Below, one piece after another: positions 12,602-18,082 of a DNA stretch of 64,000 nt (positions are counted from its first letter, which is position 1; each line of letters begins with the position of its first letter). The notes below the pieces were generated by a model. That model did no database searches. It saw nothing but the letters and a program-made list of their open reading frames with translations, and was not told the origin of the DNA. Origin of the DNA: a phage; NCBI GenBank assembly GCA_036252695.1, contig GCA_036252695.1_4122.1; one strand, given 5' to 3'. Position numbers and translations under genes: made by a program.

Positions 12602-13123
12602 ATGGATATGTTTTTTGGATCAGTTGGAAAACAAAACAGTACTTTAATTTGGCATGAAATTATCTTTAAAATTATATCTAAAAGCTACTCACTAAAGGAT
12701 ATTATTACCACAGATAATGATAGACGTATCCTGTTAGATGCAAAATATAAATTGAGCAAACACCCTTTACTTTCTTTAATCATTGATTACGTTTGTGATT
12801 ATGAATCTAGTCGTTGGAAGTGGGAAGACGGCGGTTTATTTCGTGGAAAAACATTCTACGGTGCGGAACGATATGTTTTCAGTGATACATCAAATGGCGT
12901 TAAGTTTGTTATTAGAAACTTTAACTCCAAAGAAAATGATTATCTTGAAAGTGGAGTGAAAGTATATATCGATAATAATAGCAATGTACTAACATATGAC
13001 GAATCACTAATTATGTTACAAATAATGCGTGGTGTTGAAGGTGTAAGAAACAACCTTACTAAATTGAAAATCCAGCAAAATGATATACATAATAGACAGA
13101 AAATTAAGGGTTTATATAAATGA
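12602..13123 (+). CDS. hypothetical protein, tandem paralogue family member 2
   Basis: Paralogue of 12029..12595. Confidence 0.5.
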   Translation: MDMFFGSVGKQNSTLIWHEIIFKIISKSYSLKDIITTDNDRRILLDAKYKLSKHPLLSLIIDYVCDYESSRWKWEDGGLFRGKTFYGAERYVFSDTSNGVKFVIRNFNSKENDYLESGVKVYIDNNSNVLTYDESLIMLQIMRGVEGVRNNLTKLKIQQNDIHNRQKIKGLYK

Positions 13124-13629
13124 TTTCATTTTTCAAAAAGAAACAAAAAGTTGATGAAACCGGATTAGAATCGTTTCTATGGACTCTTATCATCAAAAAA
13201 AGTCCATTGATAAAAGAATATGCTATCAATGATGCTAATAGAAAAACTATCATTGAATACAAATATGAATTATCTAAATGTGATCCAATTGTTTATCACT
13301 TTGCGAAGTACTGTTCAAAAAATTTATCGGATATCACAATCTACCACGAGTCAGTCCCAATGAGTTTTCCTTATGGTGATTGGGTAGATACTTTTGATAT
13401 TTTTGATGGGTCAAATGGTTTCAGTTTCTTTTACTCGTCAAATAAAGCAAGTGTTCGTATTAAAACAGACATAGGTTGGACAAAGCATAGCTCAAATAAA
13501 GAAGATTATAATTTATTAGCTGACGTATACCGAAGTGTGAAGAATTCAAAGGATATTGATGAAAGAATTAAAAAGCAAAATCGTATATCTTTATCACTTG
13601 AAACATACAAGTCAAAGTATGGTGGTTAA
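13120..13629 (+). CDS. hypothetical protein, tandem paralogue family member 3
   Basis: Paralogue of the two preceding genes; ATGA start-stop overlap. Confidence 0.5.
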   Translation: MISFFKKKQKVDETGLESFLWTLIIKKSPLIKEYAINDANRKTIIEYKYELSKCDPIVYHFAKYCSKNLSDITIYHESVPMSFPYGDWVDTFDIFDGSNGFSFFYSSNKASVRIKTDIGWTKHSSNKEDYNLLADVYRSVKNSKDIDERIKKQNRISLSLETYKSKYGG

Positions 13630-13631
13630 CT

Positions 13632-14033
13632 ATGACTACAGTTGATGATATCTATAGCACTATACGCAATATGAGTACAGATAGAAAAGTATTTGGCGAT
13701 AAAGAAAAATCTAAGTGTTATGGTATTGATTCTTTTGATATAATTTCTTATGAGTACAATACAAGTGGAAATAGTTCACTGAATATCGTCTGTCCTCGTG
13801 ATCCAGAAAATAATTTTATGTATGTTGAAATTAATAATGATGGAATGTTTTTTACAAAAGTTTTCAAAGGTGGAATTAATTACGAACCTATTGAATGTAT
13901 GAATGAAGAAACTTTCTTTCAAGAAGATACAATTATCAATTTAGGTTTTAGTTTTGATGATTATAAAACATTAGAACATGACTTTAATCGTTATTATAAT
14001 GGTTTCTTAAAGGAGTTAACAATTTATCTATGA
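13632..14033 (+). CDS. hypothetical protein
   Basis: 133-aa ORF; stop overlaps start of next gene. Confidence 0.5.
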   Translation: MTTVDDIYSTIRNMSTDRKVFGDKEKSKCYGIDSFDIISYEYNTSGNSSLNIVCPRDPENNFMYVEINNDGMFFTKVFKGGINYEPIECMNEETFFQEDTIINLGFSFDDYKTLEHDFNRYYNGFLKELTIYL

Positions 14034-16306
14034 ATAACCAATATATTGAACAAACAATAGTGAAACACTTGGCTGGGTCACAAGCCTACGGAACCAGTAC
14101 ACCTGAAAGTGATACTGATTATCGTGGTATTTTTCTTGCTAATAAAGAATTTATTCTTACACCCTTCTATAAGGTCAAAGAGGTAGCTGATAAAAGCGAA
14201 GAAGATACTAAATTCTATGAGTTGAATCAGTATTTAAAATTATACACTGAAGCTAACCCTAATATTCTTGAATCACTTTGGGTTGAACCTGAACACATTG
14301 TTGAAAGTACTGAAATTTATGACTATCTTCGTTCATTTAACCAAAAACTTCTTAGTTCCAAGATTGCATTTTCATATACTGGTTATGCATATAATCAGAT
14401 TAAGCGTATGACAAATCATCACGGTTGGATGGATAAAGAGCATATTGCTGAACGTAAACTAAATGAAATTTTAGAAGAACATCCAGTCGATGAGGTTCTT
14501 GCGTGGATGTATGATTCATTTCCACAATATCTTGTTGAACGTTTAGATACATCGAACTTACATCCATTTAATGCTAAAAAGATTGATTTTGAAAAATATA
14601 TGCGTGATACGTCATTGCAGTTAGTTTCGAAAAATCCATTAAAGCAATATCATTTTGTAAGATTAGTGCATAACTACACTACTGATAAAATTCTAGATCG
14701 TGATTTCAATTTATTGAATTTTAATAATGGCTATGAACTAATTCATTACGGAGAAAACATTTTTGCGATTATTAAAAATCCGAATGAAAGTACTATCAAT
14801 GCTGATGGTTCACTACGTTACTTCAATAAAGAACGTACTTCGGAAGAATTAAAAGTTCGTCCTGAACTCATTGTAAAATTCAATGAAAAGGAATACAAAG
14901 AAAATAGTGAGAACCGTAAGAGTTATCACAAATGGAAGCAGAACCGTAATGCCAAACGTGCTATTCTTGAATCACACCACGGTTATGACTGTTATAGTTT
15001 TGATACTGAATTCTTAACTAAAGATGGTTGGAAGTTATTTGATGATATTACTGAAAACGATCTATTAGCTACTTTTGACAAAAATCACAAAGTTGAATAT
15101 CAGAAATACACTGAACGTTTTGATAATTTATATAATGGCAATCTATACCATTTCACTGGTCATCACCAAGATACTTTAGTGACTGCTAACCACCGAATGT
15201 ATGTTAAGGATTATGCACGAAATCAACAAAAAGATATGTCTGATTGGAAATTTGTAGAAGCAGCACAATTAAAAGAAACATATAAAATTTTGAATACAAT
15301 ATCCCCAATAACTAAAGAACACAAAGATAAAAAAAGTCCAATTGACTACATGGATATCAAAGTTTATCTTCAACTCATGGGATGGTTTATTTCAGATGGG
15401 TGCATAAATTTCAGGGATGGTAAAGTAAAATCTTTATATATTTCCCAGTCAAAAACTAGTCAAGGTATGCGTTGTGCTTTATCAAAATACAAAAAATCTG
15501 GTCAATTAATGTTTAATGAATACATTATAGAAAAGAAAGATTATCAAGCTAATGACGAATCAAGATATACATTCCCAAGTGAAGTAGCTGAAGCATTATA
15601 TAATGATTGTGGACATGGTTCATATAATAAACGAATTCCAAATTGGGTATTTGATTTAACAAAACGTAAAATGGATTTCCTTCTGAAAGGTTTGTTACAA
15701 GGGGATGGAACAAAACGAAATTTAGTTAATGACAATGATACATTTGTATATTATACTGCCAATTCATTATTAGCTGATGATGTTCAAAAACTAGCATTAC
15801 TATGTGGTTATGAAACATCAAAATGGGGACCATACACAAACGAAACCAATTTTGGTAGTGTTGATATATATCAAATTCATATCAATATGAAACCCAAAAC
15901 CGAAAAAATGAACATGAAACAAAATCTTGAAAAAATTCCAGTTACTAATTACAGAACTGTGTGTTTTTCTGTTCCCAACGGAACACTCATTACTCGTAGA
16001 AATGGAAAAACCGCATTACATGGAAATTGCAAACATGCTATGCATACAATCAGGCTGCTGAATACAGCCGAGGAAGCACTTGAAACTGGTATCATCCAAG
16101 TTCACCGACCGGATGCTGCTATGTTGATGGACATTCGTAACGGGAAGTGGTTGTATCAAGAAGTTATGGATTATTTCAACGAAAAGGTTGACTACATCCG
16201 AAATGTGGCGTATCATAAAACTCATCTACCGAAGCGACCGAACATAAAGTTGGCGACAAAGGTACTATTAGATATCCGTGAAATGCAATGGTACAGTAAA
16301 AAATAA
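14030..16306 (+). CDS. Pol-beta superfamily nucleotidyltransferase interrupted by an in-frame intein
   Basis: N-terminal GS...G....SDxD motif (GSQAYGTSTPESDTDYRGIF); residues 321-666 carry intein blocks and LAGLIDADG motifs; flanking extein reads GYD|CKHAMH. Confidence 0.7.
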   Translation: MNNQYIEQTIVKHLAGSQAYGTSTPESDTDYRGIFLANKEFILTPFYKVKEVADKSEEDTKFYELNQYLKLYTEANPNILESLWVEPEHIVESTEIYDYLRSFNQKLLSSKIAFSYTGYAYNQIKRMTNHHGWMDKEHIAERKLNEILEEHPVDEVLAWMYDSFPQYLVERLDTSNLHPFNAKKIDFEKYMRDTSLQLVSKNPLKQYHFVRLVHNYTTDKILDRDFNLLNFNNGYELIHYGENIFAIIKNPNESTINADGSLRYFNKERTSEELKVRPELIVKFNEKEYKENSENRKSYHKWKQNRNAKRAILESHHGYDCYSFDTEFLTKDGWKLFDDITENDLLATFDKNHKVEYQKYTERFDNLYNGNLYHFTGHHQDTLVTANHRMYVKDYARNQQKDMSDWKFVEAAQLKETYKILNTISPITKEHKDKKSPIDYMDIKVYLQLMGWFISDGCINFRDGKVKSLYISQSKTSQGMRCALSKYKKSGQLMFNEYIIEKKDYQANDESRYTFPSEVAEALYNDCGHGSYNKRIPNWVFDLTKRKMDFLLKGLLQGDGTKRNLVNDNDTFVYYTANSLLADDVQKLALLCGYETSKWGPYTNETNFGSVDIYQIHINMKPKTEKMNMKQNLEKIPVTNYRTVCFSVPNGTLITRRNGKTALHGNCKHAMHTIRLLNTAEEALETGIIQVHRPDAAMLMDIRNGKWLYQEVMDYFNEKVDYIRNVAYHKTHLPKRPNIKLATKVLLDIREMQWYSKK
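14990..16027 (+). mobile_element. intein with LAGLIDADG homing-endonuclease domain (346 aa, in-frame)
   Basis: Starts with Cys (CYSFDTEFLTKDGWK, block A), TxxH block B (DTLVTANH), two LAGLIDADG-like motifs (LMGWFISDG, LKGLLQGDG), ends ...ALHGN followed by extein Cys. Confidence 0.6.
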
Positions 16307-16316
16307 GAGGATTGTT

Positions 16317-16736
16317 ATGCTAAACGAACAAATCAAAGACGCACTACGTGTACTGAATCTCGAAGTTAACCGCATCCAGAAAAGTACTGACCGTTATAAA
16401 GTAATGCATGAAATCAAACAAGAATTGGAATCTATTAATAAGGGAGAGTGGTGGTATCTTCAGCCCGAATATCAAACTCGTGAATTAAACGATGTTGAAA
16501 AAGAAATTGTCAAATTCATCACTACTCGTTATTGTGATACATCAGAGAATGATGTATCAGCGAACTTCAATCTTACTAAATTGGAAGTCGAAGAAAAATT
16601 CCATTTTGATTGGCTTGATTGGATTGAAATGGTAATGGAACTAGAAGAAAAATTCAATGTTGAAGTTGATGAAAAGTTCGAGAATAATGAAACTAAGCTG
16701 TATGAACTAGTAGAACATATTCAAAAAATGTTGTAA
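16317..16736 (+). CDS. hypothetical protein
   Basis: ORF track 16278..16736; ATG at 16317 with AGAGG RBS lies downstream of the upstream stop. Confidence 0.5.
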   Translation: MLNEQIKDALRVLNLEVNRIQKSTDRYKVMHEIKQELESINKGEWWYLQPEYQTRELNDVEKEIVKFITTRYCDTSENDVSANFNLTKLEVEEKFHFDWLDWIEMVMELEEKFNVEVDEKFENNETKLYELVEHIQKML

Positions 16737-17164: not shown

Positions 17165-17469
17165 AAAAATTATTAGTTCCAATGATTTCTTTTTTAATTA
17201 TAAGTGGGTGTGCCGAGCAAGTAAAACTACAATCCCCCGCACCAATTAAACAAGAAATTCTGTTAGAAAGATGTGATGATGATACACCTCTACCACAAAA
17301 AATTATGATTGACAAAAATGGTTTTAAAGGTTATGATGGTGCAGAAATTCTTAAAGTACTTACTCGTTGGGATGCAGTATACAATGAATGTGCTTTAAAA
17401 CATGACGCATTGATTAAAACTATTCGTGATTTACAAGGTAAAGATATTAAAATCAATATCAAGGAATAA
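17161..17469 (+). CDS. o-spanin (Rz1-like outer-membrane lipoprotein)
   Basis: Signal peptide with lipobox (LIISGC); small periplasmic protein directly after the i-spanin. Confidence 0.55.
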   Translation: MKKLLVPMISFLIISGCAEQVKLQSPAPIKQEILLERCDDDTPLPQKIMIDKNGFKGYDGAEILKVLTRWDAVYNECALKHDALIKTIRDLQGKDIKINIKE

Positions 17470-17470
17470 A

Positions 17471-18082
17471 ATGAACAAATATCATGTTTACTATACGACT
17501 AAATTATCACTTCTTGAAGAATTAAATCAACGAAGTACTAAGATGAAACGCTACACTTTAAATGGAATTACTTTTAGGTATTTCCCACAAAAAGTTCTTA
17601 CATTTATTAAGAATCCAAAATGCGTGGCATGTGGGATTGAAGCCACTGAAGTACGCATTGAACGTTCATTTTGTTCTGATCCAGTATATGGTAAACCACA
17701 TTTAAATATATATGCTGTATGTGGTCTTTATGAAGTGTTGATGACAGTTGATCATAATCATCTGGCATCTAAGGGTGGACCTGATTTAGAGTCAAACTTT
17801 AATACTATGTGCTCCAGATGTAATCAACTACGTTCGAATAAAACTGAAACAGTTGATGAGTTTCTTGAGAAAGTTAAAGGTCGTAATCTTCTCCAAGAAC
17901 ATATGAATAATTTCTTTAATGTACAAAAAAAGAAAAATAACATTGACAAGTCGAAACTACTAGAAGAACGTAGGTTACGTCAAGAATTATGGGAAACTGA
18001 TCATCTATGGCATGTTCGAGAGTTTGGTCGTCATATGAAAGCTTTGAAAAAAGAACAAAAGAAATTGAATAAACATGATTGA
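17471..18082 (+). CDS. free-standing HNH endonuclease
   Basis: Cys pairs plus DHNHLASKGGPD...NFNTMCSRCN (HNH motif); ORF track 17426..18082 but ATG at 17471 follows AAGGAA RBS. Confidence 0.6.
   Translation: MNKYHVYYTTKLSLLEELNQRSTKMKRYTLNGITFRYFPQKVLTFIKNPKCVACGIEATEVRIERSFCSDPVYGKPHLNIYAVCGLYEVLMTVDHNHLASKGGPDLESNFNTMCSRCNQLRSNKTETVDEFLEKVKGRNLLQEHMNNFFNVQKKKNNIDKSKLLEERRLRQELWETDHLWHVREFGRHMKALKKEQKKLNKHD

Follow-up and report, generated by a model that had tools for sequence, protein, structure and literature searches.

The analysed window, a 64,000-nucleotide stretch of phage DNA, carries at 14030..16306 on the plus strand an open reading frame (ORF) of 758 amino acids plus stop, as given in the ORF list. 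It encodes the predicted precursor of an RlaP-family nucleotidyltransferase split by an intein. The Pfam RlaP model (PF10127) matched residues 13-131 of the precursor (E=9e-15, 55.5 bits against a cut-off of 23) and gave 59.2 bits on the spliced extein (cut-off 23). PHROG 388 'nucleotidyltransferase' matched the precursor as two stretches (E=5e-75). The GS...SDxD motif that the first-pass annotation had read at the ORF start is the Pol-beta signature G16-S17 ... S27-D28-T29-D30, and G16, S17, D28, D30 and D59 were invariant across 41 intein-free homologues. The host protein thus belongs to the RlaP/PF10127 Pol-beta nucleotidyltransferases, here of an Asteriusvirus-type jumbo coliphage. We found 581 homologues of the enzyme, and nearly all of the 120 listed were intein-free with PF10127.

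The N-extein (residues 1-320; 14030..14989, plus strand) holds the Pol-beta NTase core (G16-S17, D28, D30, D59) and a lineage-specific middle domain. Its C-terminal end was conserved in the 41 intein-free homologues as ...W302..R306-N307..R310..E314..G-Y-D320. The C-extein (92 amino acids plus stop; 16028..16306, plus strand) opens with CKHAMHTIRL, which contains the +1 Cys and, from the helical domain, the invariant K..H..R. In spliced numbering, D320, K322, H326 and R329 were invariant in the same 41 homologues. The AlphaFold2 (AF2) model of an intein-free orthologue (pLDDT 91.7) places the insertion site in the loop that connects helix 308-317 with helix 321-340, where the first helix of the C-terminal helical domain begins. 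Since this site falls within D-[C/T/S]-K-x-x-x-H-x-x-R, the best-conserved motif in that half of the enzyme, a precursor that has not spliced is presumably inactive.

Characterised RlaP relatives extend damaged 3' ends of RNA by one or two nucleotides in phage RNA or tRNA repair (PMC12776372), and RlaP has been described as the most prevalent RNA-end-repair NTase among jumbo phages. Like PfRlaP/PaRlaP and T4 NrdC.11 (PMC12776372; PMC7824862), the host protein scored above the PF10127 threshold, has the G-S...D-x-D...D catalytic set and carries its NTase domain at the N-terminus, with a helical domain behind it. It differs from them by a large lineage-specific domain inserted at about residues 125-300, and it matches the Pfam model over the first ~120 residues only. 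The proposed role in RNA repair is an extrapolation from the Pseudomonas RlaP proteins, with a Pfam-level likeness limited to this N-terminal part. A search of the spliced extein against PDB sequences gave zero matches, and Foldseek with the extein model gave only weak matches to Pol-beta NTases (kanamycin NTase, Hailong HalB and MNT; E about 0.03), the PfRlaP structure being apparently outside the library. There was no RNA ligase among ten large ORFs of the window that were examined.

Boundaries, motifs and predicted fold of the intein

The intein, with an embedded LAGLIDADG homing endonuclease, occupies 14990..16027 on the plus strand (346 amino acids, ORF residues 321-666) and is precisely absent from orthologues. 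When the ORF was aligned to the intein-free orthologues from vB_Ec-M-J (412 amino acids) and 121Q (gp506, 410 amino acids), both were colinear with it, skipped exactly residues 321-666 and read HGYD/CKHAMH, where the slash marks the junction. Together with the translation, this shows that the coordinates proposed in the first-pass annotation are exact, and it bears out the predicted GYD/CKHAMH junction and the enzyme of ~412 amino acids. The intein-free DNA of vB_Ec-M-J is identical to the two junction flanks of the window once these are joined. The junction reads ...CACGGTTATGAC/TGCAAACATGC... in the vB_Ec-M-J-type intein-less allele and ...CACGGATACGAT/TGTAAACATGC... in the 121Q-type one. 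The reading frame runs unbroken across both intein junctions.

The splicing blocks were examined in an alignment of 17 family members. Block A (CYSFDTEFLTKDGWK; 14990..15034, plus strand) begins with Cys1 (C321), the expected nucleophile, and C321 and T326-E-F-L-T330 are invariant. Block B (LVTANHRMYV; 15176..15205, plus strand) contains Thr B:7, His B:10 and Met B:12; N387 and H388 are invariant, M390 is nearly so, and B:7 is T or S throughout. Blocks F and G (RTVCFSVPNGTLITRRNGKTALHGN; 15953..16027, plus strand) provide Cys F:4 (C645, placed by spacing and motif alignment), His G:5, the penultimate Gly G:6 and the terminal Asn. V644-C645-F646 and N666 are invariant, and G665 is nearly so. 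The insert ends in ...TALHGN and is followed by CKHAMH, the +1 residue being C, S or T in every member. The N-terminal Cys, the TxxH motif and the terminal Asn followed by Cys, named already in the first reading, are thus present. We count the retention of Cys1, TEFLT, the block B N-H, the block F V-C-F and the terminal Asn across the 17 members, with C, S or T at +1, as support for an intein.

A penultimate His is typical for inteins, though not obligatory, and it normally helps Asn cyclisation together with the His at F:13. Both are absent from the window intein, which has a His at G:5. The first-pass annotation called this HGN end atypical; however, the penultimate Gly is shared by almost every member of the family and by the wider clade as a whole, so it is a trait of the group. 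The block F position that is usually Asp in class 1 inteins is the invariant Cys in this family.

Between the splicing blocks lie the two LAGLIDADG motifs. The first (YLQLMGWFISDGC; 15365..15403, plus strand) has the putative catalytic Asp456, flanked by invariant S455 and G457, and its acidic position is always D or E. The second (DFLLKGLLQGDGT; 15674..15712, plus strand) has the putative catalytic Asp559; G560 is invariant, G558, D559 and T561 are nearly invariant, and the acidic residue is again D or E. Pfam LAGLIDADG_3 covers residues 551-601 with 23.6 bits on the whole ORF and 26.0 bits on the insert alone (cut-off 22.5). No key residue is lost in any of the three Asteriusvirus intein variants (0-37 amino acid differences), and all have the full length of 346 amino acids. 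Variants lie in proteins of 756 (121Q-type) and 759 amino acids (MDI1143759.1, HEA3649797.1 and EOR9074251.1). Selection on the endonuclease was judged from such protein-level conservation alone.

The AF2 model of the intein (pLDDT 92.6, pTM 0.92) gave as top Foldseek matches the TliVMA intein (5e-16), PI-SceI, PI-PfuI and PI-PkoII. Hint domains of Hedgehog and BIL proteins were matched as well, and the middle domain matched I-DmoI with a TMt of about 0.6. This, with the LAGLIDADG_3 score above the gathering cut-off, agrees with the two LAGLIDADG motifs seen in the first pass. The endonuclease would be a double-motif monomeric LAGLIDADG enzyme with both acidic residues kept, predicted to fold as an alpha-beta-beta-alpha-beta-beta-alpha pseudo-dimer.

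Profile searches with the insert, proposed in the first-pass annotation as a check, turned out positive for the endonuclease and for solved inteins, and negative for the Pfam Hint models. A phmmer search of the insert alone against PDB sequences gave weak matches only, and significance was reached with the intein-family profile (PI-PkoII 4e-20, AceL NrdHF 3.5e-9, TliVMA 7e-8). Pfam Hint or intein-splicing models gave no match on the insert at E<=1, and a phmmer search of PDB with the last 45 residues, aimed at the block F register, gave none either. We assign the Hint domain because of the catalytic blocks, the family-profile matches and the predicted fold. Judged by sequence and model, the insert is a genuine intein with a predicted Hint plus LAGLIDADG fold. 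Scans with the intein gave no matches in IMG/VR and none in complete E. coli genomes, and a literature search for 'intein' and 'Asteriusvirus' found no related paper.

The mosaic patch and the proposed homing event

Over the 47.5 kb compared, the window had a median identity of 99.5% to CRJP21 and 84.5% to TH47, and its backbone is of the 121Q/CRJP21 type. Bins of 200 bp closer to TH47 than to CRJP21 occurred only between 14700 and 16300. From the SNP crossovers and binned identities we delimited a TH47/vB_Ec-M-J-type patch in this 121Q/CRJP21-type genome at 14798..16390. This putative co-conversion tract of ~1.59 kb (about 14800-16385) consists of the intein with ~190 bp of left and ~355-360 bp of right flank, and its right end lies inside the next gene. 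The left crossover falls between the last backbone SNP at 14797 and the first donor SNP at 14802, the right one between the last donor SNP at 16379 and the first backbone SNP at 16391. The patch is ~100% identical to the divergent phage TH47, and the two inteins show few nucleotide differences in 1038. In the SNP table, a small isolated donor-type patch with 8 SNPs stands at 14453..14482, where the N-extein is otherwise of backbone type; it may belong to the conversion tract as a detached piece.

These comparisons indicate that the TH47-type patch would be a co-conversion tract left by recent homing across lineages, and the intein is probably still mobile. In a mixed infection, the free endonuclease would cut the intein-less allele, and repair off the intein-bearing genome would copy the intein with short flanks. 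In the event recorded by the window, a 121Q/CRJP21-type genome would have acquired the intein of TH47 type and, on its two sides, donor flanks of ~190 bp and ~355 bp.

The mosaic patch demonstrates transfer with short flanks; a break by the endonuclease is not thereby proven.

The same patch could also have arisen by ordinary homologous recombination between co-infecting Asteriusviruses, with the intein splicing and its endonuclease inactive or uninvolved. Asteriusvirus genomes are generally mosaic, and the best-matching reference changes between segments of the window. Moreover, 121Q-type exteins with their own ~90%-identical intein variant exist, which makes an exchange between two intein-bearing genomes possible; by one such route, the TH47-type variant would have replaced a resident 121Q-type variant. 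However, a donor-type patch of this kind occurs once in 47.5 kb, with the intein at its centre and with short flanks of ~190 and ~355 bp. Across the family and in every variant, the endonuclease has kept its domain length and the acidic residues of its two LAGLIDADG motifs, and most Asteriusvirus alleles are intein-free, which means that susceptible targets are common. We therefore regard recombination of this kind as unlikely, though worth keeping in mind.

As a whole, the best explanation of the locus is an RlaP precursor with a splicing intein that carries a homing endonuclease, the window recording its homing. We give this reading a probability of roughly 0.88. Both crossovers could be mapped to within about 5-12 bp, and as a natural record of a probable homing event the window is unusually clean. 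It also offers a candidate system, already available in a culturable E. coli phage, in which homing of the intein and co-conversion could be measured.

Splicing chemistry

The conserved residues and the predicted fold suggest that the Hint domain excises itself by the standard class 1 route. Cys1 would form a thioester at the HGYD/C junction, and the N-extein would then be moved onto Cys+1. Cyclisation of the terminal Asn would proceed with Gly in place of the usual penultimate His and with a His one position earlier. Joining of the exteins as ...HGYD-CKHAMH... would yield the 412-amino-acid enzyme (~47 kDa by the estimate of the first-pass annotation) and a free intein of ~40 kDa. With an invariant Cys instead of Asp at the block F position, the exact chemistry could differ from the textbook class 1 route.

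One way in which it could differ is that Cys F:4 acts as a second branch point in a class 3-like relay, or that it is linked to Cys1 by a disulfide and splicing is redox-dependent. Class 3 inteins use F:4 as their nucleophile, and most class 1 inteins have Asp there (PMC4031507). Nearly the whole clade of the window intein combines Met B:12, Cys F:4 and Gly G:6 and is without a His at F:13. The solved structure closest by sequence to the N-terminal splicing half belongs to the split intein AceL NrdHF (PDB 6ZGQ), whose membership in class 3 is proven and whose triplet is 'MCT' (PMC7891396). It shares Met B:12 and Cys F:4 with the window intein and likewise lacks both the F:13 and the G:6 histidines. 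However, AceL NrdHF starts with Ala1, carries Thr at G:5 and is a natural split intein without an endonuclease, whereas the window intein has the invariant Cys1 and His G:5, is contiguous and contains the LAGLIDADG domain. Kelley et al. place the nucleotidyltransferase intein among the class 1 inteins (PMC5050341). All complete members of the family have Cys1, whereas class 3 inteins are without a nucleophile at position 1; G:5 holds His or Gln in place of Thr, and B:12 holds a residue other than Trp. C645 was identified with F:4 by spacing and motif alignment. Considering all this, we find a departure from plain class 1 chemistry improbable.

Membership in class 3 itself was rejected, since Cys1 is invariant and the triplet is Met-Cys-His instead of Trp(B:12)-Cys(F:4)-Thr(G:5), only the F:4 Cys being common to both. 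A clade with invariant Cys1 plus Cys F:4, Met B:12 and Gly G:6 and without His F:13 might still stand mechanistically between class 1 and class 3, using a relay from Cys1 to Cys F:4 to Cys+1 or a Cys1-Cys F:4 disulfide switch. We put forward this idea as a long shot. If its disulfide-switch form were true, the maturation of an RNA-repair nucleotidyltransferase would be tied to the redox state during infection.

Phage genes are often interrupted by introns with homing endonuclease genes, and Pfam Hint models did not match the insert, but a group I intron with a homing endonuclease ORF or a permanently retained endonuclease-like domain is effectively refuted by the continuous frame through both junctions, by boundaries that fall exactly at Cys1 and Asn/Cys, by N- and C-terminal parts whose predicted fold is a Hint domain and whose matches are solved inteins, and by splicing residues that stay invariant across a family diverged to 30% identity.

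Comparison with known inteins

Although the exact 758-amino-acid protein is present in NCBI, it is labelled 'DNA polymerase beta superfamily protein' with the intein unannotated. The 758-amino-acid proteins in NCBI and in the TH47 genome appear as 'nucleotidyltransferase', 'DNA polymerase beta superfamily protein' or unannotated. Since the intein was labelled in none of the public records examined, the present assignment corrects this annotation gap. It leaves the current understanding of inteins unchanged.

The solved endonuclease inteins TliVMA/PhoVMA, PI-SceI, PI-PfuI and PI-PkoII resemble the window intein in the overall two-domain fold (Foldseek E 5e-16 to 1e-9, TM about 0.5-0.6), and they have the same Cys1, TxxH, terminal Asn and two LAGLIDADG motifs. 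Their identity to it is 10-13%, and the window intein differs from these class 1 inteins by the penultimate Gly instead of His, by Cys instead of Asp at F:4 and by the missing F:13 His. Another phage intein with Gly at the penultimate position is the class 1 Bethlehem gp51 RDF intein, which splices fast and is slowed by a restored His (PMC5050341). It resides in another extein (metallophosphoesterase/RDF); its splicing is a precedent for functional ends of the ...GN type.

The closest relatives found by tblastn with the insert were the gp3 inteins of cluster C1 mycobacteriophages (32-33% identity, 100% coverage, E about 1e-49). The first-pass annotation held that inteins are not commonly reported from this host-gene class, which did not stand. 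Homologous inteins of PF10127/IPR018775 nucleotidyltransferases were described in the mycobacteriophages ET08, Cali and LRRHood in 2011 (PMC3029335), Table 1 of Kelley et al. 2016 contains 23 nucleotidyltransferase inteins (PMC5050341), and they were analysed again in a 2025 survey (bioRxiv 10.1101/2025.01.02.630785). The splicing tests of Kelley et al. covered the TerL and RDF inteins only (PMC5050341). Since same-site inteins of this enzyme family have thus been known from mycobacteriophages since 2011, the window intein adds a member.

In the Cali gp3 alignment (32.6% identity, 100% coverage, E=3e-49), both junctions fall in the same columns, GYD/C against GWD/C and HGN/CK against HGN/TK, and the Cali motif string reads GWD/CY..TEFLT...MHGN/TK..H..RL. 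Lak-B1 has NYD/CY...FHGN/SK at the same site, and homologous inteins occupy it also in many metagenomic RlaP genes. One and the same intein allele, always at a fixed position in RlaP nucleotidyltransferases, thus spans actinophages, jumbo phages of E. coli, the Lak megaphages of Prevotella and many genomes of uncultured origin.

The mycobacteriophage C1 gp3 inteins (ET08, Cali, LRRHood, Alice; PMC3029335, PMC5050341) share with the window intein the PF10127/IPR018775 host family and the Hint plus LAGLIDADG architecture of ~335-346 amino acids. They also share the site, with G-[Y/W]-D before the intein, C-Y-x-x-D-T-E-F-L-T ... H-G-N at its two ends and [C/T]-K-x-x-x-H-x-x-R-L after it. The population pattern is the same as well, near-identical inteins within divergent exteins, as reported for the actinophage nucleotidyltransferase inteins (bioRxiv 10.1101/2025.01.02.630785). 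They differ in their hosts, actinophages in their case and a Gram-negative jumbo myovirus (Asteriusvirus) in ours. Cali gp3 further differs by Thr instead of Cys at +1 and is without the extra middle domain of ~140 amino acids that is present in the window extein.

The intein and its host enzyme

The 758-aa ORF at 14030-16306 (+) lies in low-GC phage DNA (~35% in the window) and carries the Pol-beta nucleotidyltransferase signature G16-S17 ... D28-x-D30 at its N-terminus. Residues 13-131 matched Pfam RlaP/PF10127 (E=9e-15, 55.5 bits, cut-off 23 bits) and residues 551-601 matched LAGLIDADG_3 above the model cut-off. PHROG 388 ('nucleotidyltransferase') matched the ORF in two separated stretches (E=5e-75), and weaker PHROG and NCBIfam matches were to intein-containing proteins (thymidylate synthase, PhoH, GyrA-with-intein, DnaB). 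The first-pass annotation had placed a LAGLIDADG intein at 14990-16027 in a Pol-beta nucleotidyltransferase gene, expected its removal to restore a compact enzyme of ~412 aa, and proposed aligning the extein to intein-free homologues. In that alignment, the orthologues of vB_Ec-M-J (412 aa) and 121Q (gp506, 410 aa) were colinear with the ORF and left a clean gap exactly over residues 321-666, which begin at nt 14990 and end at nt 16027. Both orthologues read ILESHHGYD/CKHAMHTIRL across the insert site (slash). The joined junction flanks of the window are identical to the intein-free vB_Ec-M-J DNA, and near the junction the 121Q-type and vB_Ec-M-J-type targets differ at synonymous positions only.

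The joined exteins measure 412 aa, as predicted, and kept the RlaP match (59 bits). They retrieved 581 homologues, of which 120 were listed; almost all of these were intein-free proteins of ~335-447 aa with PF10127. The catalytic set G16, S17, D28, D30 and D59 was invariant in 41 diverse intein-free homologues, and so was a C-terminal cluster (W302, R306, N307, R310, E314, D320, K322, H326, R329). The intein is inserted within this cluster, between D320 and residue 321. A confident model of an intein-free orthologue (pLDDT 91.7) predicts a short loop at this site, linking helix 308-317 to helix 321-340. Inteins typically insert in conserved motifs, as here in the helical domain, and the precursor would thus be inactive until the intein is spliced out. 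Foldseek neighbours of the extein model were weak Pol-beta NTases only (kanamycin NTase, Hailong HalB, MNT; E ~0.03). Pseudomonas RlaP enzymes extend RNA 3' ends by one or two NMPs and contribute to the restoration of damaged tRNA, and T4 NrdC.11 belongs to the same family (PMC12776372). Among the RNA-end-repair NTases of jumbo phages, RlaP is reported to be the most prevalent (PMC7824862).

With the insert as query, 49 proteins were matched. We aligned the window ORF with 16 relatives spanning the whole insert: 14 database matches (35-54% identical to the window in the intein), gp3 of the cluster C1 mycobacteriophage Cali and an ORF of the Prevotella megaphage Lak-B1. All members share the extein context G-[Y/F/W]-D before C-Y and [H/Q]-[G/S]-N before [C/S/T]-K-x-A-x-H-x-x-R-L. 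The invariant positions are Cys1 and T-E-F-L-T in block A, N-H in block B (B:7 being T or S), V-C-F in block F and the terminal Asn. Both LAGLIDADG motifs conserve their glycines and keep their acidic residues (D/E in the first, D559 in the second). The AlphaFold2 model of the insert with a few extein residues, built on an alignment of 35 sequences, was confident (pLDDT 92.6, pTM 0.92). Its leading Foldseek matches in the PDB were endonuclease-containing inteins (TliVMA 5e-16, PI-SceI 3e-12, PhoVMA, PI-PfuI, PI-PkoII); the central domain matched I-DmoI and the splicing domain matched Hedgehog and BIL Hint domains. At the sequence level, the intein-family profile matched PI-PkoII (4e-20), the AceL NrdHF intein (3.5e-9) and TliVMA (7e-8). 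The sole negative among the intein tests was the Pfam Hint models, which gave no match in the insert. The insert is therefore a LAGLIDADG-containing intein in an RlaP-type Pol-beta nucleotidyltransferase, and the earlier reading holds in its boundaries, domain content and host gene.

A probable homing tract between Asteriusvirus lineages

At the DNA level, the gene shares 87-94% identity with Asteriusvirus jumbo coliphages (121Q/PBECO4 group). Of 33 phage records with a match, TH47, an unannotated genome, was the only one to cover it at full length. Eight records, including vB_Ec-M-J, matched in two pieces with the middle skipped, and in the remaining listed records (121Q/PBECO4-type) the match was limited to the first 963 bases. 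The exact protein occurs on five ~275-350-kb contigs of NCBI 'E. coli' assemblies, named only 'DNA polymerase beta superfamily protein' or 'nucleotidyltransferase domain-containing protein'. Contig JAYLPS010000004.1 (GCA_036254115.1) showed no difference from the window in the 7.3 kb that was compared. Genome-sized Asteriusvirus contigs (275-359 kb) with the gene recur in assemblies deposited as Escherichia coli (proteins P0170-P0184). A 461-aa fragment in the precursor's 90% cluster was deposited as Actinomadura adrarensis (MFD0850974.1), probably through contamination.

Identity profiles of the window were computed against six related genomes. Up to ~14800 and from ~16420 onward, the window is ~98-100% identical to the 121Q/G17/CRJP21/slurp01 type. 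Between these points it is only 58-85% identical to this type and ~100% identical to TH47, intein included. Over 12500-60000 (47.5 kb), the median identity was 99.5% to CRJP21 and 84.5% to TH47, and 200-bp bins nearer to TH47 were found only within 14700-16300. SNP-level mapping placed the left crossover between 14797 and 14802 and the right one between 16379 and 16391. The donor-type patch of ~1.59 kb thus comprises the 1,038-bp intein, ~190 bp upstream and ~355-360 bp downstream. Its downstream flank extends into the next gene, an acyl-carrier-protein-like ORF (16317-16736, +; annotated 'acyl carrier protein' in vB_Ec-M-J, phAPEC6 and Sharanji). The first ~70 bp of this ORF are donor-type and the remainder is backbone-type, so the gene itself is chimeric. 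An alternative, longer GTG-started ORF from 16278 in the ORF listing overlaps the nucleotidyltransferase gene end.

A patch of this kind is what double-strand-break repair with co-conversion of flanking markers would be expected to leave. The sharply bounded tract probably records a recent homing event across lineages, and this is the most useful feature of the finding. Since the identical mosaic gene is present on at least four contigs, the event is older than their divergence. The patch could also come from an exchange between two intein-bearing genomes without an endonuclease cut, which the existence of a 121Q-type intein variant makes possible. The 28 members of the 90% cluster carry three intein variants: the window/TH47 type (0-1 aa differences, mostly in vB_Ec-M-J-type exteins), one with 35-37 differences in 121Q-type exteins (756 aa) and one with 25 differences (759 aa). 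None of the three is shortened or has lost a key residue. Divergence between the two main variants is ~10%, against ~15% for their N-exteins and ~26% for their C-exteins; the lower divergence of the inteins suggests that they move between lineages.

An isolated 30-bp donor-type stretch at 14453-14482, with eight TH47/vB_Ec-M-J-type SNPs, lies ~320 bp left of the main crossover in an otherwise 121Q-type N-extein. It may be a discontinuous piece of the same conversion tract, left by patchy heteroduplex repair, or it could reflect an older exchange. In 121Q, G17 and CRJP21, ~3.5 kb (three ORFs, annotated as tail fibre or hypothetical) separates the nucleotidyltransferase and ACP-like genes. This spacer is 185 bp in slurp01 and only 10 bp in the window, TH47 and vB_Ec-M-J (16306-16317, compared with related phage loci L002 4734-7963, L006 2755-6324 and L008 6734-10303). 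As the conversion tract covers this indel, the repair event may have removed the segment.

A free-standing HNH endonuclease ORF (17426-18082, +; Pfam HNH 1.3e-5, HNH_5 6e-5) lies ~1.4 kb downstream of the intein gene, perhaps as a second mobile element of this neighbourhood. Several relatives have it annotated as 'HNH endonuclease'; its label in CRJP21 is 'starvation-inducible DNA-binding protein'. The small overlapping ORFs 12602-13123 and 13120-13629 (both +; 173 and 169 aa) resemble diverged paralogues, judging by motifs they have in common, for example KY[KE]LSK close to the N-terminus.

Relatives and splicing class

A tblastn search with the intein against ~50,700 phage genomes returned 250 records. 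TH47 was the best match (99.7%), followed by some 90 cluster C1 mycobacteriophages (32-33% identity, 100% coverage, E ~1e-46 to 1e-50), every one of them in gene 3, annotated 'nucleotidyltransferase'. Both splice junctions of Cali gp3 (EAYGWD/CYLDDTEFLT ... VAMHGN/TKTGYHALRL) fall in the same alignment columns as those of the window ORF. The 765-aa ORF of Lak-B1 has the same arrangement (NYD/CYLNNETEFLT ... FHGN/SKNMMHSFRL). The gp3 inteins of ET08, Cali and LRRHood were described by Pope et al. 2011 (PMC3029335), 23 'NT' inteins were listed in cluster C1 by Kelley et al. 2016 (PMC5050341), and a 2025 preprint counts the IPR018775 nucleotidyltransferase among known intein hosts (bioRxiv 10.1101/2025.01.02.630785). 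The remark in the first-pass annotation that this host class is unusual for inteins therefore fails. The same preprint reports nucleotidyltransferase inteins that are nearly identical although their exteins diverge, and takes this as evidence for recent local homing. Our literature search found no paper describing an intein in Asteriusvirus; the window intein is a jumbo coliphage addition, unannotated in databases, to an already described allele. Homologous nucleotidyltransferase inteins were also seen on a 557-kb contig labelled Promethearchaeota MAG (P0012) and on a 352-kb metagenomic contig (P0005), which may be misbinned jumbo phages or megaphages.

The HGN ending, earlier taken as atypical, is the norm in the family and clade alignments. 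Phage class 1 inteins often have Gly, Lys or Ser in place of the penultimate His, and the Bethlehem RDF intein, with penultimate Gly, splices faster than its own G-to-H mutant (Kelley et al. 2016, PMC5050341). The clade as a whole is marked by Cys1, Met/Leu at B:12, Cys at the assigned F:4, Gly at G:6 and the absence of His from F:13, and this also applies to relatives whose exteins are ThyX, DNA methyltransferase or other proteins; among its more distant members, F:4 is Asp and G:5 is Ser or Cys. Most class 1 inteins have Asp at F:4, the position of the branch-point Cys in class 3 inteins (PMC4031507). Among solved relatives, the AceL NrdHF intein is the nearest to the N-terminal half; it is proven to be class 3, has an unusual Met-Cys-Thr triplet and lacks both histidines (PMC7891396). 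The window intein likewise has Cys at F:4 and lacks the F:13 and G:6 histidines. A role of this Cys in catalysis or redox control is possible but unlikely. In the window intein, Cys1 is invariant and the Trp and Thr of the class 3 triplet are absent. This does not agree with the class 3 definition, and from these residues we treated the intein as class 1.
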